This document shows, one piece after another, positions 9,878-48,708 of a stretch of 64,000 nucleotides of DNA. The notes beneath the pieces are model-generated. The model was not told the DNA's origin. It did no database searches and saw only the letters and a list, made by a program, of their open reading frames with translations. The translations under genes and the position numbers were made by a program. Within the stretch, counting starts at the first letter, position 1, and each line of letters begins with the position of its first letter. This DNA is from Candidatus Binatia bacterium (GTDB lineage: Bacteria > Desulfobacterota > Binatia > Bin18): positions 2,074,947 through 2,138,946 of the forward strand of contig OZ246888.1 of NCBI GenBank assembly GCA_965231775.1. Direction: 5' to 3'.

Positions 9878-9919
9878 GACGGGGCTGGGCCGAAATGGGG
9901 CAGGCGGGAACACCGCGTC

Positions 9920-10348: not shown

Positions 10349-10352
10349 TATC

Positions 10353-11186
10353 TCAGTTTAACTGGGCGACCGAGCGCTGGATAAGGGCGCGGATGTTTGC
10401 TGCATCTTCGGCCTTGGGTGCCAGTTGCAGGTATCTCTTGAAGTCGCGGACAGCGCCCTGCATGCGGCCCAAGCGTTGCTGAACGGCTCCGCGGTCGCGG
10501 ACCTCCATGGCAAAATCCGGCGCCAGCAAAAGAATCCGATCAATAATGCTCAGGGCACGTTCAAAATCGCCCTTTTGCAGATAGACGCCTTTTAAGTTGC
10601 GAAGCATACGGATGAGGATTTCTTTTTTCGTGGCCGGGCTGAGCAACTGCGGGATTTGGGCCATAAAAGGATTATTGTCCCCATACATGCTCTTGAGTTT
10701 TGCGGCGAGCTGCTCTTCGCTCACCGCCGCTCCACCAGCAAAGGGGTCAAGAACCTGCTCTTCATCCGGGCCGACATACTTGACCAGGAAATGTCCCGGA
10801 AATCCAACCCCAGCCAGGGGCAGGCCCAGGCGCCGGCCCACCTCCATATACAGAACGGACAAGGTGATGGGGATACCGGTCTTCCGTTCCAAGACTTCAT
10901 TCAGAAAGCTGTTACGCGGGTCATAATACTCGCCGGCATTGCCCCTCAGACCCTCCTCGAAAAAGAGATGGGTGTTGAGGGCCTGAATCCGGTCCTGGGG
11001 GGTAGGGGCCTCGGGCAGCTTGGCGCGCACCGCATCGGCGAGCTGGTCGAGACGCTTCAAGTAATGGGCAACATCGAGGTCTGGCTGTTCTTCCTGTGCA
11101 ATCAGGAGGGCGGCTTCGGCCAGGTCCAGTTCTGTTTCCGGTCCTGAGACCAGGGCGGTGAAACGTTCACGTGCCGGTGTAATCAT
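10353..11186 (-). CDS. SirB1/UPF0162-like transglutaminase-like protein with a TPR-like C-terminus.
   Basis: 277 aa with conserved GFPGHFLV... and a C-terminal TPR-like segment. Forms an operon with the NUDIX gene (5-nt gap). Confidence 0.7.
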   Translation of the reverse strand: MITPARERFTALVSGPETELDLAEAALLIAQEEQPDLDVAHYLKRLDQLADAVRAKLPEAPTPQDRIQALNTHLFFEEGLRGNAGEYYDPRNSFLNEVLERKTGIPITLSVLYMEVGRRLGLPLAGVGFPGHFLVKYVGPDEEQVLDPFAGGAAVSEEQLAAKLKSMYGDNNPFMAQIPQLLSPATKKEILIRMLRNLKGVYLQKGDFERALSIIDRILLLAPDFAMEVRDRGAVQQRLGRMQGAVRDFKRYLQLAPKAEDAANIRALIQRSVAQLN

Positions 11187-11329
11187 ATAAGCCTCTCCTC
11201 TAACCTTATACTGCTAGGAAAAGGGCAGGGGTGCAAGGGCGAGTCAGGGAAGGCCGGCCCATCATGTTTTGACAACTGGAGCCGGGTCTTCTATGTCTCA
11301 TGAGGCTGTGTGAGAAAGGAAGACCGACT

Positions 11330-12610: not shown

Positions 12611-12652
12611 GGAGACAGCCGACTGCGAATTCAAACGGCGCACGGCGGTTTC

Positions 12653-12682
12653 ATCTTGACACCCTTTTATCTCCCGGCGTAC
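12653..12682 (+). promoter_or_regulatory. Candidate sigma70-like promoter (TTGACA - 18 nt - TACAGT) upstream of the SnoaL-like gene.
   Basis: TTGACA at 12653-12658 and TACAGT at 12677-12682, about 38 nt upstream of the RBS AGGAGGA. Sequence only. Confidence 0.3.
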
Positions 12683-12719
12683 AGTTCTTCCGGTGAAGAA
12701 TATTTCACAGGAGGAAATC

Positions 12720-13118
12720 ATGAGTGCAGCGCAGAATAAGGAAATCATCAGCAATATGTTTGCCGAGCTCTCGAAAGGGAATGCGGAGGCCTTTTTGAGT
12801 ACCCTGGCGGATGATGTCAATTTCAGCCTGATCGGCTCGACCAAATTCTCGGGCGTGTTCAAGGGCAAAGCGGAGTTCGTTGAAAAAGTCCTGGCTCCCC
12901 TCGGGGCGCAGCTCGAAAACGGGCTGACCATGCACGTGGACAATCTGATTGCCGAAGGAAACAATGTCGTCATGCAGGGCCGCGGCGAGTCCATGACTAA
13001 GTCCGGTAAGGCGTATAACAACACCTATGCCCAGGTCTTCCGACTCGAAAACGGGAAGGTGCAGCAGGTCACGGAATACCTGGATACCGAACTGGTGAAC
13101 GCGGTCTTTGGAAAATGA
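12720..13118 (+). CDS. SnoaL-like / NTF2-fold (ketosteroid isomerase-like) protein.
   Basis: MSAAQNKEIISNMFAELSKGNAEAFLSTLADDVNFSL is a typical SnoaL-like N-terminus. RBS AGGAGGA lies at 12709-12715. Confidence 0.75.
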   Translation: MSAAQNKEIISNMFAELSKGNAEAFLSTLADDVNFSLIGSTKFSGVFKGKAEFVEKVLAPLGAQLENGLTMHVDNLIAEGNNVVMQGRGESMTKSGKAYNNTYAQVFRLENGKVQQVTEYLDTELVNAVFGK

Positions 13119-13180
13119 CGTACGGATGAGGGAAGCCCGTAGGTCGGATTAGCGTGGCGTAATCCGACACTCCCGTTGCT

Positions 13181-13639
13181 ATGACTCCTGACCGTACAAC
13201 GCTGATCGGCCGCGTCCTGTCTCCGGTTCGCTACACTATTCGTGAGGACGATATACACGACTATCTGCCGGTTGCGGGTGAGGAGCAGGCTGCCTTTCTG
13301 ACTGACGCGGCGGCCCAAACGGCGGGATATGCACGCCGGGTTATCCCCCCCTCGTTTGCCCCCTTTGTTGCGGTGCAGGCACTACTGCGCGCTTTCGATT
13401 GGGAGAGAGATTTTCTGTTCAACTACCGGACCGGAACCGCCATGTTCGGCGAGCAGGAACTGGAATATCTGCGGCCCCTGTATGTTGGGGAAACGCTGAC
13501 CGTTCGGTCCGAAGTTGCGGATGTGTACGAGAAGAAAGGGAAAAACAGGTTTGACGTGATCCAGGTCCATTTTACCGCGACGGACGACTCCGAGGTGGTC
13601 GCCTTTCAGGGAGCGCAGTCGTACATCCTGTTCAAATAG
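13181..13639 (+). CDS. MaoC-like dehydratase N-terminal hotdog subunit.
   Basis: 152 aa FAS1-like dehydratase hotdog fold. Sits immediately upstream of the MaoC gene, consistent with a heterodimeric hydratase. Confidence 0.7.
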   Translation: MTPDRTTLIGRVLSPVRYTIREDDIHDYLPVAGEEQAAFLTDAAAQTAGYARRVIPPSFAPFVAVQALLRAFDWERDFLFNYRTGTAMFGEQELEYLRPLYVGETLTVRSEVADVYEKKGKNRFDVIQVHFTATDDSEVVAFQGAQSYILFK

Positions 13640-31654: not shown

Positions 31655-32006
31655 GGGGGCGATCTGGTTTCGACGTGGGCTAGAAAGCCAGGGCTGCATG
31701 CCGGGGTTCTGTCCCGCCCGTAAAACGGACAGGCTGCAATTTAACTGCAGACGATTTTGATTACGCTCTTGCTGCCTAGAGCAGCTTGCGTCTTACTGAC
31801 CCGCGCCCGTAGGGTTGGCTAAGGCGACACAAATCGGGATAGGGCTCGCATCGTGCCGAAGGGTGCGCGCCCGAAACTTTACTTTGGCTGGTCTGAGGGC
31901 ATCCTGCTCGTAGGAGGCCCGAGGATGAGATCAAACTACGAGCTACGCATTGTAGATGCCTTGAGTGGACTACTCTCGGACGCGGGTTCGATTCCCGCCG
32001 CCTCCA
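31655..32006 (+). ncRNA. ssrA: Transfer-messenger RNA (tmRNA). Tag reading frame about 31747-31779, giving tag peptide ADDFDYALAA.
   Basis: 5' GGGGGCGATCTGGTTTCGACGTGGG matches the tmRNA 5' acceptor/TLD, with an internal GGCTGCATGCCGGGG. The tag ORF gca gac gat ttt gat tac gct ctt gct gcc tag ends in the typical YALAA. The 3' end is TCGGACGCGGGTTCGATTCCCGCCGCCTCCA (T-arm plus acceptor); CCA is not encoded. Lies immediately downstream of smpB. A possible -10 (ATAATT) is at 31642-31647. Confidence 0.85.
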
Positions 32007-32041
32007 TTTTCTTTCTCCCTAAGAACCCGCAGGGGGTTCGT

Positions 32042-33058
32042 ATGCTTGACTCAATCAAATTTCAGAATTTCAAGATATTACGAAAGGCAACACTTCCGCT
32101 TGCGCCTTTTACCTTAATCGTCGGACCTAACGGGAGTGGGAAGAGTACGGCCTTACAAGCCCTCCAGGCGGTAAACCACACTAGTCACGTAAAATTTCAA
32201 GAGTATGTTACCGCTGGTCTGGAAACCATAGACAATACGGTCGTAAAGATTACACTCCAATGGAGCGAGCTATATGAAAAAGTGGTAACTACCGCGCCTT
32301 GGGCCCGTACCGGCAGCTATCTTCTCCATCATGCTCGACCATCTACAGGTCAAGAGCTACCTCCAGCTTCTGGACATCTGTTAAATTCCCTACTGTCTGG
32401 AATCCGAGTTTATGCGTTAGATGCTTCGGCCATAATTCAGCCCGTCCATCTTGAACCTGCTGTTGAACTTTCCCCAAACGGCCATCGCCTTGCAGGTGTG
32501 ATGGATCGTCTCAGAGATAAAGAGCCCGAGCGATTTGAGGCGTTGAATGATGAGATCGGACGGTGGCTGCCGGAATTCGATCGTATCCTTTTTGAAACGC
32601 CCAAAACCGGACACCGAGCTTTCTTATTACGCACCCGGAAAGGCCATCATAAGATACCAGCTAGAGACCTGTCCCAGGGAACAGTGTTGGCCCTGGCTAT
32701 TCTCACCCTGGTGTACCTTCCTGATCCGCCTCCCCTAATCGGGATAGAGGAACCGGAACGAGGAGTTCATCCTCGCCTTTTACGGAACATCCAGACGGCG
32801 CTCTATCGGTTAAGCTACCCAGAGCAGTTCGGCGAAGAGCGTCAGCCAGTTCAGGTGATTGCAACGACGCATTCTCCGTATTTTCTGGACCTCTATAAAG
32901 ATCATCCTGAAGAAATTGTCATTGCTCAAAAGACTGACGATGGAGCTACATTCGAGCGGTTGTCTGACCAGCCTGACATTATGGAAGTGCTGGACGATGC
33001 TCCCTTGGGCGAGGTCTGGTATAGCGGCATTCTTGGTGGCGTGCCGGCCGAGCAATGA
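32042..33058 (+). CDS. ABC-type/AAA (AAA_21-like) ATPase, lower GC, the first gene of an island at the tmRNA 3' end.
   Basis: Walker A GPNGSGKST, a signature-like LSQGT, Walker B LIGIEEPE and H-loop ATTHSP. AGGGGGT lies 6 nt before the ATG at 32042. The track ORF starts at 31853 inside the tmRNA, which is an artifact. Confidence 0.75.
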   Translation: MLDSIKFQNFKILRKATLPLAPFTLIVGPNGSGKSTALQALQAVNHTSHVKFQEYVTAGLETIDNTVVKITLQWSELYEKVVTTAPWARTGSYLLHHARPSTGQELPPASGHLLNSLLSGIRVYALDASAIIQPVHLEPAVELSPNGHRLAGVMDRLRDKEPERFEALNDEIGRWLPEFDRILFETPKTGHRAFLLRTRKGHHKIPARDLSQGTVLALAILTLVYLPDPPPLIGIEEPERGVHPRLLRNIQTALYRLSYPEQFGEERQPVQVIATTHSPYFLDLYKDHPEEIVIAQKTDDGATFERLSDQPDIMEVLDDAPLGEVWYSGILGGVPAEQ

Positions 33059-33687
33059 AGGTAGCGGTCCTCAGCGAATCGCCAGCGGACGAAGCGGCAA
33101 TTCGTATTCTCATTGACGGCATTATCGGCAGGCAAACTCAACCGGTTGATATGCCTCTAATCCGAACACGCGGCGTCTCCGGCGTCTTCACAATTCTTCC
33201 AACTGTACTCAAGCATTTGCACTACCGAACAGATGCAGATGCTCTCGTTATAGTGGTGGATTCCGACCAGACACCGGTGCATAAGACAGAGCATGAGCAA
33301 GCTGGCGGTGTCGATGAGAGGTGCAGACTTTGCAAAATACGTCGGACCATTGATTCTGTTCTTGCCCGACTTCGACCTGCTCAGGGACGCCCTCAGATTA
33401 AGGTTGCAGTCGGTATAGCCGTTCCAGCGGTAGAAGCCTGGTATCGATGTGGTCTCGACCCGCACGTCACTGAAGCCGCTTGGATAGTAAGTCTGCCGTC
33501 AGGTCCTTTCCCCTATACCATGAGAAGCCTGAAAGAAGATGTGTACGAAACGTCGCGTCCTTCGCTGGACCTGGAAACCCGTCATGCAACAGAAGAAGCG
33601 CGACGGCTCACTCAGGATTTGCCGCTTCTCGAACAATGCTTTCCTACTGGATTCGGTGCCCTGGCTCGTGACGTAAGGAATTGGTAG
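33055..33687 (+). CDS. Small Toprim-like protein (E...DxD) coupled to the ATPase. Candidate OLD/PARIS-like nuclease partner.
   Basis: Start overlaps the ATPase stop (ATGA). N-terminal MKVAVLSESPADE and ALVIVVDSDQ fit a Toprim Glu plus DxD. 210 aa. Confidence 0.5.
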   Translation: MKVAVLSESPADEAAIRILIDGIIGRQTQPVDMPLIRTRGVSGVFTILPTVLKHLHYRTDADALVIVVDSDQTPVHKTEHEQAGGVDERCRLCKIRRTIDSVLARLRPAQGRPQIKVAVGIAVPAVEAWYRCGLDPHVTEAAWIVSLPSGPFPYTMRSLKEDVYETSRPSLDLETRHATEEARRLTQDLPLLEQCFPTGFGALARDVRNW

Positions 33688-33741
33688 CGGCTGAGAGGCT
33701 GCCGTCGCCCGGACAGGGCGCAGTCTGTCACACCGAGCGCC

Positions 33742-36700
33742 TCACCCCGCACCAGCCTGCTCATACGCAAGCCCGAACACCGTATCGGTCAGCCAGCGCT
33801 TGAAGCTCTGGTTGTCCATGAACTGCTTGAACAGCTCGGTGTCGTCCTTCATCACCGAGGTCATCACCCGGAGCAGCGCCTTGTCGTGTTCGATACGGGC
33901 GTTCTCCCGGTCCGAGTTCTGCTGAGCGTTCTTGAAGGCCGTGTCCTCGGCCACCCTGGCAGGAATGGTCTGGGTAATGAGCTGCCGCACACGGTCGGCA
34001 TCGTCCCAGTCGATATCGCCGAAGAGATCGTTGAAGGCCCGCAGGATATTCGACAGCCGGTCCAACTCCGGCTCGGGCAGGTGGCCGCCGCCTATGGTCG
34101 GCACAGGTTCGATCTCGGCATCCTCGTCGGGTAGCATGATTTTCTGTATGGCCTGCTTCTCGGCCCGATAGCTGTCCATGTCGATGGCGTCGAGAATGCC
34201 CTTGGACAGGTCCTCCTCTTGGGGGGAGGGTAGCTTGGAGACCAGGAAATTCAGGAATATCGAGCGTTTCTCCCAGTCCGCGTTGGTATAGGGCAGGACC
34301 GACGACAGGAAGCCGTAGGTCCGCACAAAGCCCTTGGCCTTGCCCTTGAAGTCCACCTGGCCGTCTTCGTCCAAATCGCCCAGATAGACTGCCACGCAGG
34401 CATCGAGGATGGGGTCGAGCTGGTCACGTTCGGCTCCGCTAAGATAACGTGACACAAAGGCGTCGATCTGCTCGGAAGAATAGACCTGAGCGCCGTCAAG
34501 ATCAGCCTGCAAATCGTGCAGCTTGTTGGGGTCGGTCTCATCGGCCAGAATCGTCGCCCGATAGAAGCCGGCAAAGGACTCACAGATAATTGCGGTCTTG
34601 TTCAGAAAATCCAGCACGAAGACATCGTGCTTCTTGGGATGCGCCCGGTTGAGGCGCGACAGGGTCTGCACCGCCTTAACGCCCGCGAGCGTCTTGTCCA
34701 CATACATCGTGTGCAGCAGGGGCTCGTCATAGCCGGTCTGGAACTTGTCCGCACAGATCAGGAAACGGTAGGGGTCCTCTTGTATCTTCTCGGCGATCTT
34801 GCCGGACGGAAAACCGTTGAGCGACGCCTCGCTGACCTTGACTCCGCCGAACTCGGGCTCACCGGAGAACGCCACTATGGCCTGGTAACGGCTCTTGCGT
34901 TCTTTCAGGTAGTCGCGGATGGCGTGAAAGTACTGGATAGCGCGCTCAATACCGTTGGTGACGACCATGGCCCGTGCCTGGCCGCCGATCTTGTTCTGGG
35001 CCAGCACCTGCTCGTGAAAATGATCGACCATGATCTCGGCCTTGAGACGAATGGCATGGTCATGGCCCTCGACAAAGCGCCGCAGCTTCTTCTGGGCTTT
35101 CTTCGTATCGAACTGCGGGTCGTCTTCTACCGTCTTGGCCAGCTTGTAATAGCTGCTCACCGGCGTGTAGTGGGCCAGCACGTCCAGGATAAAGCCCTCC
35201 TGGATGGCCTGCTTCATGGTGTAGGTGTGAAAGGCGTGATGCTTGACCGTGCCGTCGGCCTGCGGGTCCGGGTTGCCGAAGATTTCCAGGGTCTTGTTCT
35301 TGGGCGTGGCCGTAAAGGCGAAGTAGCTGGCGTTGGGGAGCAGCTTGCGCGACTCCATCAAACGGTTGATCTGGTCCTCATAGGTCTCCTCTTCGCCCTC
35401 CTCACCGGCCCGGGACAGCGCCTGCGCCATGGCCGCGCTGGTGCGGCCGCCCTGGCTGGAGTGGGCCTCGTCGATGATAATGGCGAAGCGCCGCCCGCGC
35501 TGCTCGTCGCCGATCTCGTCGAGGATGAAGGGAAACTTCTGCACGGTCGAGATGATGATCTTCTTGCCGGACTCGATGAAGCGGCGCAGGTCGCCCGAAC
35601 GCTCGGCATGCCCGAGTGTCGCGCCGACCTGGGCGTACTGTTTGATGGTATCGCGAATCTGCTTGTCGAGAATCCGCCGGTCGGTGACCACGATGATCGA
35701 GTCGAAGACCGGGCTATCGTCTTTTGCCAGCCCGATCAGTTGATGCGCCAGCCAGGCAATGGAGTTGCTCTTGCCGCTGCCCGCCGAGTGCTGGATTAAA
35801 TAGCGCCGGCCCACGCCACGCGTCCCGGCGTCGGCTAGCAGCCGGCGCACCACGTCGAGCTGGTGGTAGCGCGGCCAGACCTGGGTCTTTTTCTTCCTGC
35901 CCGTCTTCTCGTCCCTGGACTCTACCACTTGGGCATAATTCTCCAGAATGTTGGTCAGGCTCTGGCGGGTCAGCACCTCACGCCACAGGTAGTCGGTCTT
36001 GAGCCCGTTCGGGTTGGGTGGGTTGCCCGCGCCGTCGTTCCAGCCCCGGTTGAAGGGTAGAAACCACGAGGACTTGCCCTGGGGGTGGGTGCAGAAGCGC
36101 GCTGCGCTCTCGTCCACGGCGAAGTGGGCCACGCAGCGCCCGAGTGCAAACAGCTTCTCGCGCGGGTTGCGGTCTTTTTTGTACTGCCAGACCGCGTCGT
36201 CCACGGTCTGCTTGGTCAGGCTGTTCTTGAGTTCAAAGGTAAAGACCGGCAGGCCGTTGATGAACAGCCCGATATCCAGCGCCCGCTGGGTTTCGTCGCG
36301 GCTGTAGCGTAGCTGGCGGGTAACGGTGAAGCGGTTCTGCTCGAAGCGTTCCTTCGCCTTCTGGTTGCCGGCTGAAGGCGTGCCGTAGAACAGGGCCAGG
36401 TGGTGCGACCCGTGGTCGAGGCCGTGGCGCAGCACGTCGATGCTGCCGCGCTTGGCAATCTCGCCCTGGAGCCGGGCCAGGAATTTACGCCGTGTGGGGC
36501 CGTCCTCGGACAGCCCCAGCGATGCCGCGGCCTTGGGTTGGGTGGCACGCAGGAAGGCCGAGAGCTGGACCAGATCGACGCAGTATTCCCGGTCGTAGTC
36601 GTGGAAGTTGCCGCCGCTCCAGCCCACACCGCCGTAGCCGGCGGGTGGTTCGGCCACTGTGCCCGTGGCGGGCGGCTCGCAGGGATGGCCGGCCAGCGCG

Positions 36701-36747
36701 GTGCAGATGAGGCGTTCGAGACCGCGTTCGGAGGTGTCGGTGGGCAT
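33742..36747 (-). CDS. hsdR: Type I restriction enzyme R subunit.
   Basis: 1001 aa with SF2 helicase motifs (QHSAGSGKSNSIAW, IIIDEAHSSQG) and N-terminal nuclease-domain similarity. Confidence 0.9.
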   Translation of the reverse strand: MPTDTSERGLERLICTALAGHPCEPPATGTVAEPPAGYGGVGWSGGNFHDYDREYCVDLVQLSAFLRATQPKAAASLGLSEDGPTRRKFLARLQGEIAKRGSIDVLRHGLDHGSHHLALFYGTPSAGNQKAKERFEQNRFTVTRQLRYSRDETQRALDIGLFINGLPVFTFELKNSLTKQTVDDAVWQYKKDRNPREKLFALGRCVAHFAVDESAARFCTHPQGKSSWFLPFNRGWNDGAGNPPNPNGLKTDYLWREVLTRQSLTNILENYAQVVESRDEKTGRKKKTQVWPRYHQLDVVRRLLADAGTRGVGRRYLIQHSAGSGKSNSIAWLAHQLIGLAKDDSPVFDSIIVVTDRRILDKQIRDTIKQYAQVGATLGHAERSGDLRRFIESGKKIIISTVQKFPFILDEIGDEQRGRRFAIIIDEAHSSQGGRTSAAMAQALSRAGEEGEEETYEDQINRLMESRKLLPNASYFAFTATPKNKTLEIFGNPDPQADGTVKHHAFHTYTMKQAIQEGFILDVLAHYTPVSSYYKLAKTVEDDPQFDTKKAQKKLRRFVEGHDHAIRLKAEIMVDHFHEQVLAQNKIGGQARAMVVTNGIERAIQYFHAIRDYLKERKSRYQAIVAFSGEPEFGGVKVSEASLNGFPSGKIAEKIQEDPYRFLICADKFQTGYDEPLLHTMYVDKTLAGVKAVQTLSRLNRAHPKKHDVFVLDFLNKTAIICESFAGFYRATILADETDPNKLHDLQADLDGAQVYSSEQIDAFVSRYLSGAERDQLDPILDACVAVYLGDLDEDGQVDFKGKAKGFVRTYGFLSSVLPYTNADWEKRSIFLNFLVSKLPSPQEEDLSKGILDAIDMDSYRAEKQAIQKIMLPDEDAEIEPVPTIGGGHLPEPELDRLSNILRAFNDLFGDIDWDDADRVRQLITQTIPARVAEDTAFKNAQQNSDRENARIEHDKALLRVMTSVMKDDTELFKQFMDNQSFKRWLTDTVFGLAYEQAGAG

Positions 36748-36799
36748 GTCTGTTATTCTGATGTGACTATAAAGGAGGAGAGTATTTCACTCTTACGTG

Positions 36800-37321
36800 T
36801 CATCTCGGTGGGCTCCAATGCAACTGGACGCCAAGCCGGCGTAGCATTTCAAAAGGACTGATACATTCCACATCAAAGGCGCGGCAAACGTTGGGTAGTG
36901 GGACTCGTCTGCGCACGTTCGGGTCGAATTGCTCCAGGGTGACCACGACACACCCTGTCTGCTTGGCATAGGCCGCAAGCCAGCCGTCGGCGACGTCTTG
37001 AAATTCTGTCTTAGCGGTGTCCTGGAACTGGGGCTGAGCCATCACCCATATCAACATTTGCTGGTACTCCGACGTAATAGCCGCTGTCGAAGTATCTACA
37101 AACGCGTTGGCACCGAATCGCTGTTCTGCCCAGTCCCAAAGGTCATCTCCTCCGCGTTTCAGTTCCTCCTGAACTCTGTCGATACTGTAGAGCCTTCCTT
37201 CCCGGTTGTAGTAGATAAGCACATGCCAATAGCCTGGACAGAAATCGAAGTCATAGAATCGCCGCTTCGCTTGAATAAAGACGTTGGCATCCAGCACATA
37301 TCTCTCATCTGCCTCGCTCAT
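36800..37321 (-). CDS. DUF4411 (PIN-like) family protein.
   Basis: N-terminal YVLDANVFIQAKRRFYDFDFCPGYW. 173 aa. Lies directly downstream of an ImmA/IrrE gene. Confidence 0.7.
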   Translation of the reverse strand: MSEADERYVLDANVFIQAKRRFYDFDFCPGYWHVLIYYNREGRLYSIDRVQEELKRGGDDLWDWAEQRFGANAFVDTSTAAITSEYQQMLIWVMAQPQFQDTAKTEFQDVADGWLAAYAKQTGCVVVTLEQFDPNVRRRVPLPNVCRAFDVECISPFEMLRRLGVQLHWSPPR

Positions 37322-37326
37322 TACGG

Positions 37327-38469
37327 CTACAATCCGAGTGTCTGCGCAAATTGGTCGAAACTCCGGCCATGCAGACCCGTGAGGCGATACGCGTCACGGT
37401 ACAGTAGCCGGCCCTCCCGCGCTGCACGAATGACCGCGCTACCGAAGCGACGGCCGACACGTCCCCGTTGCGCGTTGTAGAAATTCCCCCCACTCGATTG
37501 CTGCGCAGATCTTCGCCGTTCGTCAGCCTTGTATCGATCCAGGAATCCGTAGAAATCGTCTCCCGCCATCAACTCTCGATCCAACACTCGCCGGGCCGCT
37601 ACGAGGGGGCTGACCTTGAAGCGCCTCGCCAGCGCTTGAAACGGTTCGGCCGACTCGGCCACGCTCGGCCAGCAGCCATCAAGCTCGTCTCCCGGAATCA
37701 GTACTTCCGCCGCAACCTCGTTACAAAATCTTTCAACATCATCGTCGTAGGGCTGGAGGTTCACCAAGTTGAACACACCGCCTGTCCCCAACCACAGGTG
37801 GGCCAGTTCGTGCGCCAGGGTAAACATCTGAGCAGACGTGAAGTCCGCTCCGTTGATGAAGATTAAAGGCGCGTAATCGTCGCAGAGCACAAATCCCCGA
37901 AATTCCTCCGGGTCCAGTTTCTGTCGCGTATTGTTCTCCACGACGCCGTTGACGACGACCAAAACACCTATCTCTTCCACCGCCTGCCGAAGCCCAACGA
38001 GCGCGGCGGACCATGTAGGGTGCGTGCTCGCCCAGCCATCATCGACACCGAGTGTCCTTCGGATATTGTTGGCCGCGTCCACGCGACTCGAAGCCAACGT
38101 GACAGTCCCGACGAAGGCAAGAGGTTCTTCGCCTACCTCGATAAGATATTCGCGCATCCACTCTTGCCGCCGCTGCATTTGCCGCACAGTGGTTATCAGT
38201 GCCGCGCTCGGCCGCGCCGGCTGCTGGCCTTTGAGGGTGCGAAAATCAGCAACCGGTAATTTCTCATCCGGCGGCTCCTCTAAAAGCAAGGCTCCGAAGG
38301 GTGTGAGCGTCGCCTTTGCAAACCGCTCCAATTGCTTAAACGTCGGCTGCGCCTCACCGCCTTCCCACTGTGGCAGCTTCGGGAAGCGCTTCGCCAAGTC
38401 AGACATGTCCTTTCCCGAGCGCTCGCGCGCCCAGCGAACCACTGCGGGGTTCACCGCGACCTTGTTCAT
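37327..38469 (-). CDS. HTH (XRE-like) + ImmA/IrrE family metallopeptidase (DUF955).
   Basis: HELAHLWLG is the HExxH zinc peptidase motif, and the N-terminus is HTH-like. The start is chosen at MNKVAVNP; the track begins at 38511. Confidence 0.75.
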   Translation of the reverse strand: MNKVAVNPAVVRWARERSGKDMSDLAKRFPKLPQWEGGEAQPTFKQLERFAKATLTPFGALLLEEPPDEKLPVADFRTLKGQQPARPSAALITTVRQMQRRQEWMREYLIEVGEEPLAFVGTVTLASSRVDAANNIRRTLGVDDGWASTHPTWSAALVGLRQAVEEIGVLVVVNGVVENNTRQKLDPEEFRGFVLCDDYAPLIFINGADFTSAQMFTLAHELAHLWLGTGGVFNLVNLQPYDDDVERFCNEVAAEVLIPGDELDGCWPSVAESAEPFQALARRFKVSPLVAARRVLDRELMAGDDFYGFLDRYKADERRRSAQQSSGGNFYNAQRGRVGRRFGSAVIRAAREGRLLYRDAYRLTGLHGRSFDQFAQTLGL

Positions 38470-38517
38470 ATTGATAACACAGCACCCTGACCGGCTACGG
38501 TCAATCTTCAAAGTCGT

Positions 38518-39903
38518 CTATCGCTCAGCATATGCCGCGTCAATCAGAGCTTTAGCCTTATCAAACTGCTTTGGTTCGGCTTCCCCATCCGGCAACCGTA
38601 CAGCTGCCTCGCGCACGTCGAGCTTGCCGGTGACGACATCGGCGATCAGGCGGGTGCGGTATTCGTGGAGGATAGCTTGCTCTTTGCGGCAATTACCTAT
38701 CGCTATGGCGATCTTGCTCTGTTCCTCATCCAGGACCGCAGCGATTCGGTCCTGTTCGGACACTGGTGGAACCGCGATCAAGAGGGCCTTGATGTCCGCG
38801 ACGTTAATTCGATTGAACGTTGAACCGACAAGGAGCAATGCAAGTTGATCTGACATGACCTTGCTGTGCAGGAAGTAGTTTAGCCATCGCTGGTTCTCGG
38901 AAGAGGACCTGATGAGACATACATCTTGTCCCATCGCGAAACGATCCTCTGTCGTGACAAGGGCAGCGGCCCCAACGCTTACGTTGCGGCAATAGATCAG
39001 GTCTCCAGGCCGAGGCTCCCTTCCTCCTTCGATCAGCTTCTCATACCATTCGGGAGTGGTACGGTTTGATGCTTTGAAGTTTAGCTCGAAGGACTGTGCT
39101 TCCCGTACGCTGGCCAAGGGAATACCACCATCGACGAAAGGCACTGTAAGGTGCTTGCAGTCGATAACCTGCCATTTCCTCCGGAGTGCAACCACCTCCC
39201 AATGCTCCGGCACCTCCCCCAGCCACTCCACGCCGGAGGGCTTGTAGACCGGGTAGGGCTGGCCGGTGCGGATGTCGATCTGGCCGGTGACGGCTTGGTG
39301 GATGAGGGCCTGCTTCTGCTCTTCCAGCAGCGCAATCAGCTTCTCCTTGGCGTGGATGTAGCACCGGATGCGCCGGTCGGCGTGGTCGAGGAAGCGGGCG
39401 ATGGCGGTTTGTTCGGAGAGGGGCGGGACACCCAGCTCTATATTCCTAACCTGCTTTGATGAGAGATGTTTGACGGTCGTAGAGTGTGCAAGGTCCCCAA
39501 TGATCTTTAATGGTAGTTCAACAGCGCGGACAATAAACCCTGCGCGGGAGGAATTTTTCGCTCGGAGACAACACATCCTCTGATTTAGCAAGGCGGCCGG
39601 TCCCCGCCATCGCGCAACGTTGAACAATCCGTCCATCCCCACGATGATATCACCCGTTTCAATCAGAGCCTCTTCAACGATGGCACCACCGTAATTCACC
39701 TCTGTCTTGATAGCGTGCAAATCGCGAATCCGAATAAGCGGTGTTCCTTCTCCCTTCACAAAGTACTGCGAGTCAAAGGGATAGCCGTTGACTACTGTGG
39801 CAATGCTGGACAAACGAGACACCTCCCAATGTGCCGGCACCTCTCCCAGCCACGGCACACCGGAATCCTTGTAGGCAGGGTAGGGTTTCAGTTCGGCGGC
39901 CAT
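38518..39903 (-). CDS. hsdS: Type I restriction-modification specificity subunit (two target-recognition domains).
   Basis: Duplicated architecture with a repeated WLGEVPxHWEV...L and the central and C-terminal conserved helices of HsdS. 461 aa. Confidence 0.85.
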   Translation of the reverse strand: MAAELKPYPAYKDSGVPWLGEVPAHWEVSRLSSIATVVNGYPFDSQYFVKGEGTPLIRIRDLHAIKTEVNYGGAIVEEALIETGDIIVGMDGLFNVARWRGPAALLNQRMCCLRAKNSSRAGFIVRAVELPLKIIGDLAHSTTVKHLSSKQVRNIELGVPPLSEQTAIARFLDHADRRIRCYIHAKEKLIALLEEQKQALIHQAVTGQIDIRTGQPYPVYKPSGVEWLGEVPEHWEVVALRRKWQVIDCKHLTVPFVDGGIPLASVREAQSFELNFKASNRTTPEWYEKLIEGGREPRPGDLIYCRNVSVGAAALVTTEDRFAMGQDVCLIRSSSENQRWLNYFLHSKVMSDQLALLLVGSTFNRINVADIKALLIAVPPVSEQDRIAAVLDEEQSKIAIAIGNCRKEQAILHEYRTRLIADVVTGKLDVREAAVRLPDGEAEPKQFDKAKALIDAAYAER

Positions 39904-39906
39904 TTG

Positions 39907-39960
39907 TCAGTCAAAAAGCGTTTTCGCGACCTCGTTGCCCGAGAGGTCACGGAGCAGCTT
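39907..39960 (-). pseudogene. Possible truncated hicA-like toxin remnant (17 codons, MKLLRDLSGNEVAKTLFD*) overlapping the hsdS start.
   Basis: Short ORF immediately 3' of the hicB-like gene. Its N-terminus resembles the HicA/YcfA start, but it ends in a stop just where hsdS begins. Confidence 0.2.
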
Positions 39961-40172
39961 CATACCGCGATGGCCTCTTCCTTGATGAGATGGAGCCTGA
40001 TGGCTCTTGGTGCGGTGTCTTCGTCGAAATGGCAGAGGACCGCGTCCTTCACCATGTCTTTCAGGTCGTCCCAATCATCGCCCTGGGTGAAAATACTGTA
40101 CCCAAGCGCTCGGGCGTCGTACCCGCCTTCAACTGCCTCCGTGACCTCGAAAATGATCTCGGTCGGTCTCAT
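39960..40172 (-). CDS. hicB: HicB-like (UPF0150) antitoxin.
   Basis: MRPTEIIFEVTEAVEGGYDARALGYSIFTQGDDWDDLKDMVKDAV fits the UPF0150/HicB N-terminal domain. The track ORF starts at 40193. Confidence 0.55.
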   Translation of the reverse strand: MRPTEIIFEVTEAVEGGYDARALGYSIFTQGDDWDDLKDMVKDAVLCHFDEDTAPRAIRLHLIKEEAIAV

Positions 40173-40235
40173 CGAATAATCCTCCGTGTGCATCTCTGCA
40201 CGCGTCGCCCCTCCGATTGGCGTCGGCGCGCATGT

Positions 40236-42221
40236 TCATGACTTGCTGTTACCCCCGATGATCTCGTCCAACAACCCCTCCGTCTCTTGCTCCAGTGACA
40301 GAATATCCGCCCGGATGTCCGCTAGCGTCCGCAGGGGCTGCGGCTTGTAGAAGTAGCGGGTGAAGCTGATCTCGTAGCCGACCTTCACGTTGTCGGGCTG
40401 ATACCAGGCGTCAGAGGCGTAGGGCAGGACCTCGCGCTGTAGGAAGGCTTCGATCCCGCCCGCCTCTTGCAATGGAATCTGCTCGGTGTCGCGCAGGTCG
40501 GTGTCGGGCTCGTACTCCACCACGGCGGGTTTGCCGTTGATGGTGGTGGCGAACAGGCCACGTAACGAGTCAGCTTCCGTGCCTTTCTTGTGAAATTTCT
40601 TGATGACGGGTGGCGCGTCCTCGCTGCGCTCGCCGTTTTCTTTGAGCTTCTTGATCTCGGCAGCCTTGTAGGCGCGATTGGGGTCAGTGCCTTGGATACG
40701 CAGCGGTCGCTCGACCGTGACCTTCCAATAGCCGAAGGCGGCGTTGTCGAATATTTTGCTCTGCTGGCTCTCCTTGAAGTCAAGAAAGGTGTCGCAGATA
40801 CGAGCGATGTCTTCCTCTGACAGCTCACAGTTCTTCTTGCCCAGGTTCTTGCGCAAAGGCCGGTACCAGGTAGTAGCGTCGATCAACTGCACCTTGCCCC
40901 GGCGATGCGCGGGCTTGCGGTTGGTCAGCACCCAGACGTAGGTGGCGATGCCGGTGTTGTAGAACATATTGAGGGGCAGAGCGACGATGGCCTCCAGCCA
41001 GTCGTTCTCGATAATCCAGCGGCGGATATTGCTCTCGCCCTGCCCGGCGTCGCCGGTGAACAGCGAGCTACCGTTGTGCACCTCGGCGATGCGGCTGCCG
41101 AGCGGGGTGTCCTGCTTCATCTTGGAGAGCTTGTTGGCGAGAAAAAGCATCTGACCGTCGCTCGAACGGGTGACCAGCGAATACTCGGGGTCGCCGGCAT
41201 GTTCGATCACGAAGCGCGGGTCGCGCATGTCCTGCTTGCCGCCCATGCGCTCCAGGTCGGTCTTCCAGCTCTTGCCGTAGGGCGGGTTGGACAGCATGAA
41301 ATCGAACTCGCGGGCCGGGAAGGCATCGTTGGCCAGGGTGGAGTGTTCCGGGCCGCCCACGATGTTGTCGGCGGCTTCTCCCTCACCCTTGAGCAAGAGG
41401 TCGGCGGTGCAGATGGCGTAGGTCTCGGCGTTGATCTCCTGGCCGTAGAGATGGGTGGATACGTCCTTGTCGTACTCGGCGGCGAGTTGCCGCAGGGTGT
41501 CTTCGGCCACGGTCAGCATGCCGCCGGTGCCGTAAGCGCCGTCATAGAGCAGATAGGTGCCGGATTTGATTGCGTCGGCAATGGGTAGGAAAACGAGCCT
41601 GGCCATGAGGGTTACGGCGTCGCGCGGGGTCCAGTGTTCGCCGGCCTCCTCGTTGTTCTCCTCGTTGAAGCGGCGCACCAGCTCCTCGAAGATCGAACCC
41701 ATGCCGTGGTTGTCGAGGCCGGGGTGTTTGACCGAGCCGTCGGTGTTGAGGACCGGGGCTGGGCTCAGGTTGATATCGGGCGAGGTGAGCTTCTCGATCA
41801 GCGTGCCCAGGGCGTCGGCTTTGGACAGGCGCGTAATCTGGTTGCGAAACTCGAAGTTGTCGAGGATGTCCTGCACGTTGGGCGAGAACCCATTGAGGTA
41901 GTCTTCAAAGTCTGCCGTCAACTGCTGGCGATTGGCGCGGGCTCTGAGGTCGCGCAGGGTGAACTTGGAGGTGTTGTAGAACGCCTGGCCCGCGGCCTGG
42001 CGCAGGGCCGGGTCCTGTTCGACCACGCCCGCCGTATCGAGGCTGGCCCGCATGTCCAGGACGGCCTGCTTGCTGTCTTCCAGGACCGCATCCAGCCGGC
42101 GCAGTACGGTCATGGGCAGGATCACGTCGCGATACTTGCCACGCACGTACAGGTCGCGCAGCACGTCGTCGGCAATGCCCCAGATGTAGTTGGCAATCCA
42201 GTTCAGGTCGGTGGTGCTCAT
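40236..42221 (-). CDS. hsdM: Type I restriction-modification DNA methyltransferase (N6-adenine).
   Basis: FMLSNPPYGKSWK is the NPPY catalytic motif, and the N-terminal HsdM domain begins MSTTDLNWIANYIWGIADDVLR. The start is chosen at 42221; the track extends to 42431. Confidence 0.9.
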   Translation of the reverse strand: MSTTDLNWIANYIWGIADDVLRDLYVRGKYRDVILPMTVLRRLDAVLEDSKQAVLDMRASLDTAGVVEQDPALRQAAGQAFYNTSKFTLRDLRARANRQQLTADFEDYLNGFSPNVQDILDNFEFRNQITRLSKADALGTLIEKLTSPDINLSPAPVLNTDGSVKHPGLDNHGMGSIFEELVRRFNEENNEEAGEHWTPRDAVTLMARLVFLPIADAIKSGTYLLYDGAYGTGGMLTVAEDTLRQLAAEYDKDVSTHLYGQEINAETYAICTADLLLKGEGEAADNIVGGPEHSTLANDAFPAREFDFMLSNPPYGKSWKTDLERMGGKQDMRDPRFVIEHAGDPEYSLVTRSSDGQMLFLANKLSKMKQDTPLGSRIAEVHNGSSLFTGDAGQGESNIRRWIIENDWLEAIVALPLNMFYNTGIATYVWVLTNRKPAHRRGKVQLIDATTWYRPLRKNLGKKNCELSEEDIARICDTFLDFKESQQSKIFDNAAFGYWKVTVERPLRIQGTDPNRAYKAAEIKKLKENGERSEDAPPVIKKFHKKGTEADSLRGLFATTINGKPAVVEYEPDTDLRDTEQIPLQEAGGIEAFLQREVLPYASDAWYQPDNVKVGYEISFTRYFYKPQPLRTLADIRADILSLEQETEGLLDEIIGGNSKS

Positions 42222-42374
42222 CTTTTTGCGTATCCCTGAGGGGCCTGTAGCGGATATCACACGGAACGCAGGACACAACACTCCGGGCGTGTACCGAAGG
42301 GCAGAGGCGAGGCAGGGGCCTACGGAACAGAGGAGAGCCTTACGGATCGCGGGGCAGGCGTCAATCCCTGCTCT

Positions 42375-42540
42375 TATGTGGGTGTCGGCGAACCCACTCA
42401 TGCCGATGCCATCCTCGACCGGTTGGTGCACAACGCCTATCGCATCGAGCTGAGGGGCGAATCGATGCGAAAAATCAACGCCGGGAGAGGTAGACGACTC
42501 AAGGCCAAGGTTTTACTGTACGAAGGCTATGAGGGAGAAT
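42375..42540 (+). mobile_element. IS21-family istB C-terminal remnant (pseudogene fragment).
   Basis: Frame translation ...[43 protein letters not shown]...* matches the conserved IstB C-terminus (AILDRL..H....I.L.GeSyR). No N-terminal ATPase part or istA is present. Confidence 0.55.
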
Positions 42541-42544
42541 CATA

Positions 42545-44083
42545 ATGAGTTCCGATAAAACCGGCGGCTCCGTAGGCGCGCCGACAGACAGCGAACTGCG
42601 CGCGGCCGCGCAGGCTTTATTTCTCGATCTGGATCGGGGCGACGTGGATTTCTTCGCAACCGCGATGGGCAAGTTCGTCGACGACTACAATGCCATCGAC
42701 GCCATGGACGCGCCGACCCTGCCGACGAAATATCCGCGCGGTGAGGGTTATCGCCCGACCGGCGATGAGAACCGTTACGGTGCCTGGCAGTGGAAGTGTT
42801 CGATCAAGGGCGCGGCGTCCGGCAAGCTCGTCGGCAAACGCGTCGCCATCAAGGACAACATCAGCGTTGCGGGCATGCCTATGCTGAACGGCTCGGCGCT
42901 GTATGAAGGCTTTATCGCCGACGAAGATGCGACCGTCGTGACCCGCGTGCTCGATGCCGGCGGCGAAGTGGTCGGCAAGGCCGTGTGCGAAAACTTCTGC
43001 TATTCCGGCGGCAGCCATACGTCGGCTTCGGGTCCGGTGAGGAACCCGCGCGACCCCGACTTCATGACCGGCGGCTCGTCGAGCGGCTGTGCCGCATTGA
43101 TTCTGACGGGTGAATGCGACATGGCGATCGGCAGCGACCAGGGCGGCTCCGTACGCATGCCGAGCTCGTGGTCTGGCTGCGTCGGGATCAAGCCGACTCA
43201 CGGCCTCGTGCCCTATACCGGCGCCGGACCCATCGAGCACACTATCGATCACCTCGGGCCGATGGCTGCCTCGAGCGTCGATTGCGCCCTGTTACTCGAG
43301 GTAATCGCGGGCTACGACGATGGCCTCGACCCGCGCCAGGTGGCGGCATTGCCGGCAAAACCCTATAGCGAACTCGTCGGCCGGGGGATTGAGGGGCTGC
43401 GGATCGGTATCGTTCGCGAAGGCTTCGGCGCGCCGGGCTCGGAAGCGGACGTGGATGAATCCGTGCTGGCCGCGGCCCGGCGGCTGCAGGAAGCCGGTGC
43501 CGTGGTCGCAGAAATCTCCATCCCCATGCACACCGAGGCATTGAAGATCATGTTCGCAGGTTCTGTCGACGGGACGCTGTCAACGTGGAGCGATCAGGGT
43601 CCGGCGGGCGGAAACGCAGATGGCCACCACCCACTCGGAGCGATCCGCTTCTTTCAGGAGGCGCGCAAAACCCGGGCGGCGGAACTGCCGGACATGGCCA
43701 AGACCGTGCTGTTGTTCGCGCAGGTCATGCGCGCACGGTACGGCAACTATTATTCCGCCAAGGCCCAAAACCTCGTCCGCACGCTCCGTGCCGCCTACGA
43801 TCTCGCGTTTGATAAATGCGACCTGCTGGTGATGCCGACGACCGTGATGAAAGCACACCGGATCCCACCACCGGACGCATCCCGTGAAGTCGTCATGGGG
43901 CTCACGCTCGACATGATCGGCAACACCGCGCCCTTCGATGCGACGAGCCATCCGTCGATGAGCGTGCCGACTGGTCTGTCGAACGGCCTGCCCGTCGGCA
44001 TGATGATCACAGGACGCTACGGTGAGGACGATGTCGTGCTGCGCGCCGGGCATGCGTTCGAGACGTTGCGTGGACCGTTTTGA
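42545..44083 (+). CDS. Amidase-signature family amidase.
   Basis: GGSSSGCAALI (GGSS[SG]G) and KDNISVAGMP. RBS GAGGGAG precedes the start. 512 aa. Confidence 0.85.
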   Translation: MSSDKTGGSVGAPTDSELRAAAQALFLDLDRGDVDFFATAMGKFVDDYNAIDAMDAPTLPTKYPRGEGYRPTGDENRYGAWQWKCSIKGAASGKLVGKRVAIKDNISVAGMPMLNGSALYEGFIADEDATVVTRVLDAGGEVVGKAVCENFCYSGGSHTSASGPVRNPRDPDFMTGGSSSGCAALILTGECDMAIGSDQGGSVRMPSSWSGCVGIKPTHGLVPYTGAGPIEHTIDHLGPMAASSVDCALLLEVIAGYDDGLDPRQVAALPAKPYSELVGRGIEGLRIGIVREGFGAPGSEADVDESVLAAARRLQEAGAVVAEISIPMHTEALKIMFAGSVDGTLSTWSDQGPAGGNADGHHPLGAIRFFQEARKTRAAELPDMAKTVLLFAQVMRARYGNYYSAKAQNLVRTLRAAYDLAFDKCDLLVMPTTVMKAHRIPPPDASREVVMGLTLDMIGNTAPFDATSHPSMSVPTGLSNGLPVGMMITGRYGEDDVVLRAGHAFETLRGPF

Positions 44084-47686: not shown

Positions 47687-47716
47687 CCCGCGAGAAACCC
47701 CGGCCAGATACACGCT

Positions 47717-47983
47717 ATGAAAAAGCTGACCGCCTCCGAGGCGAGGAAAAATTGGTTTCGAGTGCTTGATGAAGTCGCTGCCGGGGAAGTCGTTGTCCTG
47801 GAGCGGAAGGGGCAGAGGCCCGTTTTACGCAGGGAAGACAAAAAAGTCATAAAATCGAAGCAACAATTTCCTGACTATACACGTCTCCTGCGTGTTCCTG
47901 ATGCCGATCAAGCTGACCGGTGGAGTTGGGACTGGCAAGGGGAAAGCCAAGACCTCATGTCGATCTCTCGGAAAAAACAGTGA
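47717..47983 (+). CDS. Phd/YefM-like antitoxin-fold protein with a C-terminal extension.
   Basis: MKKLTASEARKNWFRVLDEVAAGEVVVLERKGQRPVL has the Phd/YefM N-terminal pattern. Confidence 0.5.
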   Translation: MKKLTASEARKNWFRVLDEVAAGEVVVLERKGQRPVLRREDKKVIKSKQQFPDYTRLLRVPDADQADRWSWDWQGESQDLMSISRKKQ

Positions 47984-48044
47984 CTATTCTGCTGGATATT
48001 CATTCGATGACTTCATGTTGTCATTCCAATGATGGTATGCCATC

Positions 48045-48311
48045 ATGCCAAATATGATTCGGACTCAGGTACAGCTTAAAGAACAGCAGTTGCGCCGATT
48101 GCGGGCACTTGCTGCGGAGCGAGGATTATCGATTTCCGAGTTGGTGCGTAACGGAGTGGATCATATCCTCAGTCACGCCGAGCGAGGGGAGCACGGAGAC
48201 CGGGCGCAGCGTGCAATCGCCGCCGCGGGACGCTTCCATTCCGGACGCGCCGACGTGGCCCGTCGCCATGACGCCTATCTTGCCGCCGCTTATGAAACAC
48301 CCGAGGGGTGA
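48045..48311 (+). CDS. Ribbon-helix-helix antitoxin.
   Basis: MIRTQVQLKEQQLRRLRALAAERGLSISELVRNGV is an RHH. Overlaps the downstream PIN gene start. Confidence 0.65.
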   Translation: MPNMIRTQVQLKEQQLRRLRALAAERGLSISELVRNGVDHILSHAERGEHGDRAQRAIAAAGRFHSGRADVARRHDAYLAAAYETPEG

Positions 48312-48708
48312 AGAAGTATTTATCGACACGTCCGCTTTCTATGCTGTGCTGGACGCGGCCGATGAGGTGCATGCTCGGGCACGTGTGGGGTGGATGGGAC
48401 TGATCCGCGACGGCAACCCATTGGTGACCTCGAACTACGTATGTGTGGAGACCTGCGCTCTTGTTCAAGCGAGGCTCGGTATGGATGCCGTGCGTATTTT
48501 GTTCGACGATATGCTGCCGATGGTGACCGTGGTCATGCTCGATGAGACACTCCACACGAACGCTATCGCAACCTTGCTCGGAGCCAATAGGCGGAACCTG
48601 AGCTTAGTGGACTGCACGAGCTTTGCGATGATGCGCCACCGCGGCACGAGCACGGTATTTGCCTTTGACCAGCACTTTGCCGAACAAGGTTTCCAACTCG
48701 TGTCGTAG
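48289..48708 (+). CDS. vapC: PIN-domain toxin (VapC family).
   Basis: VFIDTSAFYAVLDAADEVH...SNYVCVETCAL...SLVDCTSFAMM has the PIN acidic residues. The start is at MKHPRGEE (48289), inside track ORF 48109..48708. Confidence 0.75.
   Translation, partial: LMKHPRGEEVFIDTSAFYAVLDAADEVHARARVGWMGLIRDGNPLVTSNYVCVETCALVQARLGMDAVRILFDDMLPMVTVVMLDETLHTNAIATLLGANRRNLSLVDCTSFAMMRHRGTSTVFAFDQHFAEQGFQLVS

Follow-up and report, generated by a model that had tools for sequence, protein, structure and literature searches.

The present analysis deals with a 64,000-nucleotide stretch of contig OZ246888.1 from a Candidatus Binatia bacterium (called the window below), and in particular with a group of genes in it that combines a type I restriction-modification (R-M) system and a predicted toxin-antitoxin (TA) pair. 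The minus strand between positions 33742 and 42221 carries five co-oriented open reading frames (ORFs): hsdM, hsdS, a gene for a helix-turn-helix (HTH) protein with an ImmA/IrrE-type peptidase domain (ImmA from here on), a DUF4411 gene, and hsdR. Their boundaries coincide with those proposed in the first-pass annotation of this DNA (Table 1). Protein families were searched with Pfam and NCBIfam, defense models were searched with PADLOC v2.0.0, and folds were compared by using AF2 models and the Foldseek PDB library. The Pfam and PADLOC identities agreed with the previous assignment of hsdR, hsdS and hsdM to the minus strand, and the matches to PF14367 and Peptidase_M78, together with an alignment to the Mycobacterium tuberculosis antitoxin VapB52, confirmed that the DUF4411 and HTH-ImmA/IrrE genes are located between hsdS and hsdR. 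The spacers measure 333 bp between hsdM and hsdS, 48 bp between hsdS and the ImmA gene, 5 bp between the ImmA and DUF4411 genes, and 52 bp between DUF4411 and hsdR.

Table 1. Features of the locus, in positions of the window
Feature	Position	Strand	Size, evidence and remarks
hsdM, N6-adenine DNA methyltransferase subunit	40236..42221	-	661 aa; Pfam HsdM_N and N6_Mtase; PADLOC MTase_I 6.8e-240
HicB-like small antitoxin gene	39960..40172	-	70 aa from MRPTEIIF; ORF may extend to 40193 (77 aa)
HicA-like toxin remnant	39907..39963	-	18 codons, MKLLRDLSGNEVAKTLFD followed by a stop; internal deletion; read from the sequence
hsdS, specificity subunit with two target-recognition domains	38518..39903	-	461 aa; two Methylase_S stretches (Pfam); PADLOC Specificity_I 2.4e-92
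HTH and ImmA/IrrE (M78) Zn-peptidase with C-terminal helical domain; predicted antitoxin/sensor (VapB52-like)	37327..38469	-	380 aa; Peptidase_M78 2.6e-15
DUF4411 PIN-like nuclease, predicted toxin (VapC52-like)	36800..37321	-	173 aa; PF14367 1.2e-49, 158/159 profile positions
hsdR, restriction/translocase subunit	33742..36747	-	1001 aa; Pfam HSDR_N, SWI2_SNF2/ResIII, T1R_D3; PADLOC REase_I 4e-42
Candidate defense module: ABC-type ATPase (32043-33058) and 210-aa partner (33055-33687)	32043..33687	+	convergent with hsdR
tmRNA (ssrA) gene	31655..32009	+	ARAGORN; Rfam RF00023, 176 bits

The domains, motifs and repeats by which the HsdM, HsdS and HsdR subunits of a type I R-M system are recognized were all found. 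HsdM keeps the AdoMet motif GTGG at residue 231 and the NPPY motif at residue 312, and its start was placed at position 42221 (MSTTDLNW...), within a longer ORF that spans 40236–42431. HsdS is divided into two halves that are delimited by an internal 66-nt repeat (39193–39258 and 39820–39885). The conservation of HsdR was judged across 18 homologues, in which the nuclease residues D158 and E172-x-K174 (E172-L-K174 in the window) and the translocase elements GSGKS323-327 (Walker A), DEAH426-429 and the motif VI arginines were invariant; the closest solved structure is that of the type IC enzyme EcoR124I (1.3e-12). A search for frameshifts in the five genes found none. All are full length, their lengths equal those in homologues, and their catalytic motifs are intact, in agreement with the previous statement that hsdM and hsdR carry no inactivating frameshift. 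As judged by these motifs and lengths, the operon looks like a functional type I R-M system.

The two genes embedded in this operon were compared with VapBC52 of M. tuberculosis (Rv2514c/Rv2515c; PDB 9vzy and 9vzz), which was solved in 2026 (PMC13273310). VapC52 is a DUF4411 tRNase toxin. Its antitoxin VapB52 (46 kDa) has an N-domain with an HTH, a peptidase of the IrrE type and a C-domain, and it binds the toxin at a 2:1 toxin:antitoxin ratio (PMC13273310). Single-stranded DNA (ssDNA) activates the peptidase, whose zinc site is gated by a cysteine-switch loop, and the antitoxin then cleaves itself at a conserved 'FR' motif and so loses the N-domain (PMC13273310). DUF4411 had been predicted earlier to be the PIN-like toxin of three-component systems with an HTH protein and a COG2856/DUF955 protease (Makarova 2009; Matelska 2017). 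The first-pass annotation had described the function of the ImmA-DUF4411 pair as still unclear, a statement that is outdated since VapBC52 has been solved as a tRNase with an ssDNA-activated, self-cleaving antitoxin and since the ImmA-type antitoxins of RosmerTA have been validated.

The window DUF4411 protein matched VapC52 (9vzy_D) with an E value of 3e-4 in a single-sequence phmmer search and of 1.1e-9 when a profile built from 22 toxin sequences was used. Its residues D11, E53, D112 and E130 are invariant and align with the acidic residues of VapC52. The AF2 model has a pLDDT of 88.7, and its top fold matches are all VapC-type PIN toxins. The VapBC52 entries were not among the matches from the Foldseek PDB library, which runs to April 2026, and therefore the direct link to VapBC52 comes from the sequence searches. 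The ImmA ORF spans 37327–38511 (394 aa), and the consensus of its homologues indicates that the most likely start is the ATG at 38469 (MNKVAV...). The protein aligns with VapB52 (9vzy_A) over residues 6–351 (E 5e-21). In an alignment of 78 sequences, i.e., 77 of the clade, the window included, plus VapB52, no variation was found at H220-E221-x-x-H224, E246 and R77, and 71 sequences have F76; the stretch D75-F76-R77-T78 aligns with DFRR of VapB52. The AF2 model consists of a five-helix HTH (residues 1–62), a linker, the peptidase core and a C-terminal helical domain, and the part of the linker that carries F76-R77 (residues 70–83) is predicted to be disordered (pLDDT <50). CapP, IrrE, PprI-ssDNA and PrpR were the best fold matches, which is the same set reported for VapB52, and the HTH resembles in fold the controller protein C.Csp231I and ImmR, a likeness also stated for VapB52 (PMC13273310). 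The HTH escaped detection by Pfam, also at a high E value, and its assignment is based on the full-length alignment to VapB52, the AF2 model and the fold matches. In PADLOC, the antitoxin had a match to capP (5e-12) and weak matches to RmrA (7e-11 to 8e-4), some of them across most of its length.

Like VapBC52, the window pair places the gene for a large HTH-IrrE/ImmA peptidase antitoxin upstream of, adjacent to and co-oriented with that for a DUF4411 PIN toxin. The two systems also have in common the four acidic toxin residues, the HEXXH motif with its additional Glu, the FR motif at the junction of the N-terminal domain and the peptidase, and the C-terminal helical domain. The window pair is distant in sequence, has Phe at the cysteine-switch position, and lies inside a type I R-M operon, whereas VapBC52 is free-standing in an actinobacterial chromosome. 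On the evidence of its sequence, the pair is thus of the VapBC52 type by architecture, catalytic residues and cleavage motif, and departs from it at the cysteine switch. Other known systems share part of these features. ImmA-type antitoxins have been validated in the RosmerTA (RmrT/RmrA) systems, where they give phage defense, and PIN-like partners of the ImmA node are mentioned in PMC10440598. RosmerTA antitoxins are likewise composed of an HTH and an M78/ImmA zinc peptidase and their toxins are swappable, but the characterized RmrT toxins are different (e.g., membrane-depolarizing), and the window had only the weak RmrA matches and none to RmrT. In CapP/CapH, the CBASS regulator, and in IrrE/PprI-DdrO, too, a HEXXH protease that responds to ssDNA or damage cuts an HTH protein. 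In those systems the substrate is a separate repressor and the outcome is that transcription is turned on; the window antitoxin, like VapB52, has protease and HTH substrate in one polypeptide, and what it is predicted to set free is a toxin. It lacks the Cys switch of CapP.

Then, we propose, with a probability of about 0.6, that the ImmA-DUF4411 pair is a VapBC52-type TA or abortive-infection cassette that is co-expressed with, and mobilized by, a working type I R-M system and serves as a second line of defense. From the homology we infer that the DUF4411 protein would be toxic and that the ImmA protein would neutralize it: the 380-aa HTH-ImmA/IrrE protein would bind a dimer of the PIN-like RNase and hold it inactive. 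A signal derived from a phage or from damage, probably ssDNA by analogy with VapB52, CapP and IrrE/PprI, would switch on the zinc peptidase, which would remove its own N-terminal domain at the Phe76-Arg77 linker. The released RNase would cut tRNAs and bring translation to an arrest. Through its predicted co-transcription with the R-M genes, the cassette would form a second layer behind restriction and travel with them. The position between hsdS and hsdR, where EcoprrI has prrC, would serve type I operons generally as a site for cargo and would receive interchangeable toxic modules. If this proposal is correct, the 8.5-kb operon would join DNA-level defense and an RNA-level suicide or dormancy switch under one promoter. 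Systems of this kind have been described before, with respect to both the TA family and the pattern of embedding; the locus is a new, intact and compact member from an uncultured lineage. It can be used as a test bed for two questions, whether a native VapBC52-type pair defends against phages (the published evidence is from toxin over-expression) and whether toxins embedded in R-M operons ride along or back up restriction, and it bears on the activation signal of the clade in which the cysteine switch is missing.

Several observations weigh against the proposed cassette. The identity between the toxin and VapC52 is only about 25%, and none of the PADLOC or NCBIfam models, RmrT included, matched the DUF4411 protein. 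The position of the cysteine switch (C229 in VapB52, F233 in the window) is occupied by Phe in 39 and by Ser in 38 of the 77 clade sequences, and Cys is found only in VapB52; judged by this residue, the window antitoxin and its clade depart from the VapBC52 type. Consequently, activation by ssDNA is not simply transferable from VapB52, and the trigger proposed above is an analogy. Phage protection was obtained only with over-expressed VapC52, and the co-expressed VapBC52 pair gave none (PMC13273310). The operon structure is deduced from the spacing of the genes alone: the scan of 33400–42700 found one promoter-like site (2.2 expected) and 12 terminator-like sites (7.2±3.1 expected), which is not above background, and nothing usable among them. 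Finally, the genes were compared with those of the closest relative of the window, a Candidatus Binatia metagenome-assembled genome (MAG) designated L001, with about 90% nucleotide identity in the flanks. The dN/dS values were 0.41 for ImmA and 0.59 for DUF4411, both based on few substitutions, and 0.08 for hsdM (91% nucleotide identity) and 0.09 for hsdR. Compared with the value of about 0.09 for hsdM and hsdR, those of the TA genes may indicate a relaxed constraint.

The distribution of the pair was studied in 80 genome loci that were fetched with DUF4411 as the starting point, 61 of which had enough flanking DNA to be informative. In 78 of the 80 loci, the gene immediately upstream of DUF4411 encodes an ImmA homologue, and the divergence of the two proteins is correlated (Spearman 0.77). 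These two results, together with the occurrence of free-standing pairs on plasmids, indicate that the pair acts as one unit. Linkage to type I R-M genes was found in half of the informative loci (31/61), with the strict order hsdS-ImmA-DUF4411-hsdR in 16 and other arrangements in 15; the usual full order in linked loci is hsdM-hsdS-ImmA-DUF4411-hsdR. This count bears out the previous description of the pair as a recurrent passenger of R-M loci. The other 30 loci have no type I linkage, and spot checks of their neighbors found no R-M genes; some of these copies have housekeeping genes, for example metH and gcpE, on their flanks. In the tree built from ImmA and DUF4411, embedded copies are mixed with free ones throughout. 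The divergence of HsdR and that of the TA genes are only loosely correlated (Spearman 0.47), and the same slot is used beside HsdR proteins that are only 19–24% identical to that of the window. These findings indicate that the association arose repeatedly, and they rule out vertical inheritance of the five genes as a unit. Carriage by phages amounted to only 6 matches in 2.9 million viral contigs.

The copies outside R-M operons raise the question of whether the pair is a selfish element. It could stabilize its surroundings by post-segregational killing, locking the R-M operon or the defense island in the genome, and have no direct antiviral role. The plasmid copies, which are free-standing among other TA and addiction modules (GNAT/DUF1778, HipBA), would be expected from such an element, as would the roughly one half of the informative chromosomal copies that are linked to no defense gene, some of them beside metH or gcpE. 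A second, decayed TA module (hicBA) within the same operon and the lack of phage protection by the co-expressed VapBC52 pair (PMC13273310) point in the same direction. Nonetheless, the presence of about 50% of the informative loci inside type I R-M operons is far above chance, and the overlap of the DUF4411 stop with the hsdR start, described below, argues for a selected co-expression with restriction. Moreover, other cargo of the slot includes experimentally validated defense toxins, such as DarTG, and the ImmA-type antitoxins of RosmerTA do give phage defense. We consider that a purely addictive role is unlikely, and that addiction and defense are not mutually exclusive.

In a locus of the same collection that belongs to a Phycisphaeraceae MAG (L044, positions 7054–13236), the ImmA-DUF4411 pair lies between hen1 and pnkp, which are bacterial RNA-repair genes. 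The putative tRNase toxin thus adjoins enzymes that mend cleaved tRNA. A general link to RNA repair was discarded, since the arrangement hen1-ImmA-DUF4411-pnkp was found in this locus and in none other of the 80.

In 11 of 20 embedded loci, the stop codon of DUF4411 overlaps the start of hsdR, as ATGA in L003, L004, L016, L023, L035, L064 and L070 and as TGATG or TAATG in L057, L075, L076 and L078. The overlap occurs in HsdR families that share only about 20–45% identity. Such an arrangement indicates, as far as can be read from the sequence, that translation of the toxin is coupled to that of the restriction subunit. In the window and in L001, the 52-nt spacer takes the place of the overlap. 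The slot itself is that of the anticodon nuclease system EcoprrI, whose gene order is hsdM-hsdS-prrC-hsdR (PMC3014915). PrrC of EcoprrI, a type IC system, is like the DUF4411 protein in that the gene of a latent, translation-disabling nuclease is found in the identical slot between hsdS and hsdR, and the window HsdR is also closest to a type IC enzyme among the solved structures. PrrC is a single ABC-ATPase/HEPN protein, which the R-M complex keeps silent and the T4 Stp peptide sets off, whereas the window nuclease is PIN-like and has its own protease-type antitoxin (M78 and DUF4411, with neither ABC-ATPase nor HEPN). The ImmA-DUF4411 pair, unlike PrrC, also occurs in the absence of R-M genes.

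These likenesses make it conceivable that the pair is a guardian wired to the type I enzyme: it would sense that restriction has failed or is inhibited (e.g., by Ocr/ArdA-like proteins), or it would sense the DNA that restriction produces, perhaps by contacting HsdR, and then fire the tRNase. The slot is the one used by prrC, the predicted effector is likewise a tRNA-loop nuclease, the overlap with the hsdR start was found in at least two HsdR families, and restriction followed by exonuclease processing would yield ssDNA, the trigger of VapB52. Against a guardian of this type, the pair brings its own antitoxin, 30 of the 61 informative loci have no R-M neighbor, and the divergence of HsdR and of the TA genes is coupled only loosely. 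A search for a sequence signature specific to embedded ImmA proteins found none, the split between Phe and Ser at the cysteine-switch position follows the clades and not embedding, and embedded and free copies are mixed on the tree. In addition, the window has a spacer and not an overlap, and the slot takes many unrelated cargos and, in an orthologous operon, contains a plain VapBC, as would be expected of a permissive site of insertion. In view of these points, we regard the guardian as improbable. Quite unlikely, too, is a related reading, a wired fail-safe of type I restriction in which the toxin is co-translated with HsdR and the protease reads the ssDNA produced by ongoing or overrun restriction, so that cleavage of DNA would be followed by cleavage of tRNA. 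The pair would in this case be a protease-gated, independently evolved analogue of PrrC, and the Phe or Ser at the cysteine switch would mark another activation signal.

The ImmA protein could also have a regulatory function. Its HTH would act as a controller (C) protein of the R-M system or as a damage-responsive repressor that tunes hsdR, for example for restriction alleviation in a new host or after DNA damage, and DUF4411 would be secondary. The fold of the HTH is like those of C.Csp231I and ImmR, the cassette lies directly upstream of hsdR, and the relatives IrrE and ImmA are regulatory proteases (Makarova 2009). On the other hand, the scan of 33400–42700 identified no promoter, the pair is equally conserved where hsdR is absent, and the active site of the toxin is strictly conserved, which a purely regulatory role does not need. 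A regulatory role of this kind is, in our view, very improbable.

The junction between hsdS and hsdR was then considered from the side of the R-M genes in a second set of 80 loci, fetched from metagenomes, in which HsdR is 48–85% identical to that of the window. The hsdS gene is located upstream of hsdR in 70 of them, and 27 of these 70 carry more than 600 bp of cargo between the two genes. The cargo includes Schlafen/AlbA_2 with HATPase_c_4 (7 loci), DarT/Macro, i.e., DarTG (3–4), RhuM/Fic, zeta toxin, YhcG nuclease, AAA_21 with DUF4276, TIR/SEFIR and M78 peptidase. The ImmA-DUF4411 pair was found in only 1 of the 70 HsdR relatives (L128, positions 895–2618); it lies there between hsdM and hsdS, and the hsdS-hsdR slot of that locus is filled by a different two-gene cargo. 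The association is thus one-way: the pair is often in type I operons, but this HsdR family rarely carries the pair. In another locus (L126, positions 1071–2492), the slot holds a gene for a 473-aa protein, the ImmA profile matches positions 1449–2423, and there is no DUF4411.

The exchange of cargo is seen most directly in L173 (ENA contig ctg332943_5x_l), whose operon is orthologous to that of the window, with 87.6% nucleotide identity over hsdM and hicB and 86.6% over hsdR. Its slot (L173 4919–5673) is occupied by a gene for an RHH-like protein of 107 aa and a canonical PF01850 PIN gene, i.e., a VapBC that replaces ImmA-DUF4411, and the stop of the PIN gene overlaps the start of hsdR. The comparison of L173 and the window is a clean cassette swap. 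This swap and the 27 of 70 loci with other cargo show that the junction is a permissive and often exchanged site for toxic or abortive-infection modules, as described before (Makarova 2013; Matelska 2017; the 'guilt-by-embedding' preprint). Embedded genes have been described in type I R-M, BREX and DISARM loci ('guilt-by-embedding', Payne et al. 2024 preprint; also Makarova 2013 and Matelska 2017), and the coupling of PIN-like toxins to type I R-M subunits had already been reported (Matelska 2017). The window locus is an instance of this known pattern, although PADLOC v2.0.0 lacks a model for the ImmA-DUF4411 cassette; the type I association of about 50% and the stop-start overlap with hsdR, in contrast, were measured here and do not come from those papers. 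For experiments on the proposed cassette, comparative variants are at hand in the sampled DUF4411 pairs, about half of which are in type I operons, in the stop/hsdR overlap, and in the VapBC swap within an 87%-identical operon.

The comparison with L001 gave a second indication of exchange within the operon. The TA segment (window 36900–38553, L001 8650–10500) is 95–100% identical between the two genomes, and hsdM and hsdR are 87–95% identical. The dS values are 0.05–0.06 for the TA genes and 0.32–0.37 for hsdM and hsdR. This contrast of the TA segment and its flanks points to a recent recombination across the middle of the operon, as read from the two sequences. Both target-recognition domains of HsdS (38672–39194 and 39426–39824) show no relationship to their counterparts in L001, although the conserved parts of HsdS match, and these otherwise near-identical R-M systems should, by prediction, recognize different DNA sequences. 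Upstream of hsdM (42380–42500, minus strand), the similarity to L001 ends at 42376, and the GTG-initiated extension of the hsdM ORF (42222–42431) resembles the end of some other coding sequence, unrelated and perhaps degraded.

The spacer between hsdM and hsdS contains a small ORF whose product, in its 70-aa form, has 963 homologues, typically of 70 aa and 80–97% identical, that are spread over many phyla; some of them carry the wrong label '2-oxoisovalerate dehydrogenase'. The 77-aa ORF had no match in Pfam, PADLOC or NCBIfam, and for this reason the HicB identity was drawn from the comparison of neighborhoods. In the locus L083, the HicB-like gene is followed by an intact HicA-like gene of 82 aa (L083 2720–2968). 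Only 18 codons of such a gene are left in the window: the N-terminus is joined to the last few residues, and both ends match the intact gene of L083. The HicB-like gene is also present in L173, with a longer, frameshifted HicA remnant that has another partial deletion at the same place, and the entire hicB/hicA insert is absent from L001. By these comparisons, the spacer contains a decayed module of the hicBA type, whose antitoxin has become an orphan.

This decayed module and the defense-island setting beside the tmRNA gene had both been overlooked in the first-pass annotation. The operon lies 1.7 kb from the tmRNA gene, and the 3′ end of the tmRNA is the exact point at which synteny with L001 is lost. 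The neighbors of ssrA are the ATPase and its partner. The ATPase has AAA_21/AAA_15 domains (Pfam) and matches HEC-01A of PADLOC (2.2e-45); the partner, in which no Pfam domain was found, has a weak match (1.9e-4) to HEC-01B, which in HEC-01 is a TOPRIM-like partner. The GC content of the two genes is about 0.50, compared with about 0.59 in the surroundings, and in L001 they lie on the upstream, hsdM side of the operon, not downstream of hsdR as in the window. The possibility of a mobile island next to the tmRNA gene was considered, and neither an integrase or recombinase nor a direct repeat of the tmRNA 3′ end was found there. In L001, the block formed by the ATPase pair and the R-M operon is flanked by a repeat of 216–288 bp (L001 3075–3362 and 13589–13804), which may mark the boundary of a recombination or an insertion. 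A single copy of this repeat is present in the window, at 47716–48004. The plus-strand ORF at 48109–48708, in a region that differs from L001, encodes a canonical PIN domain (PF01850, 1.9e-10; residues 70–193), separate from the DUF4411 toxin, and is probably a distinct VapC with a shorter true start.

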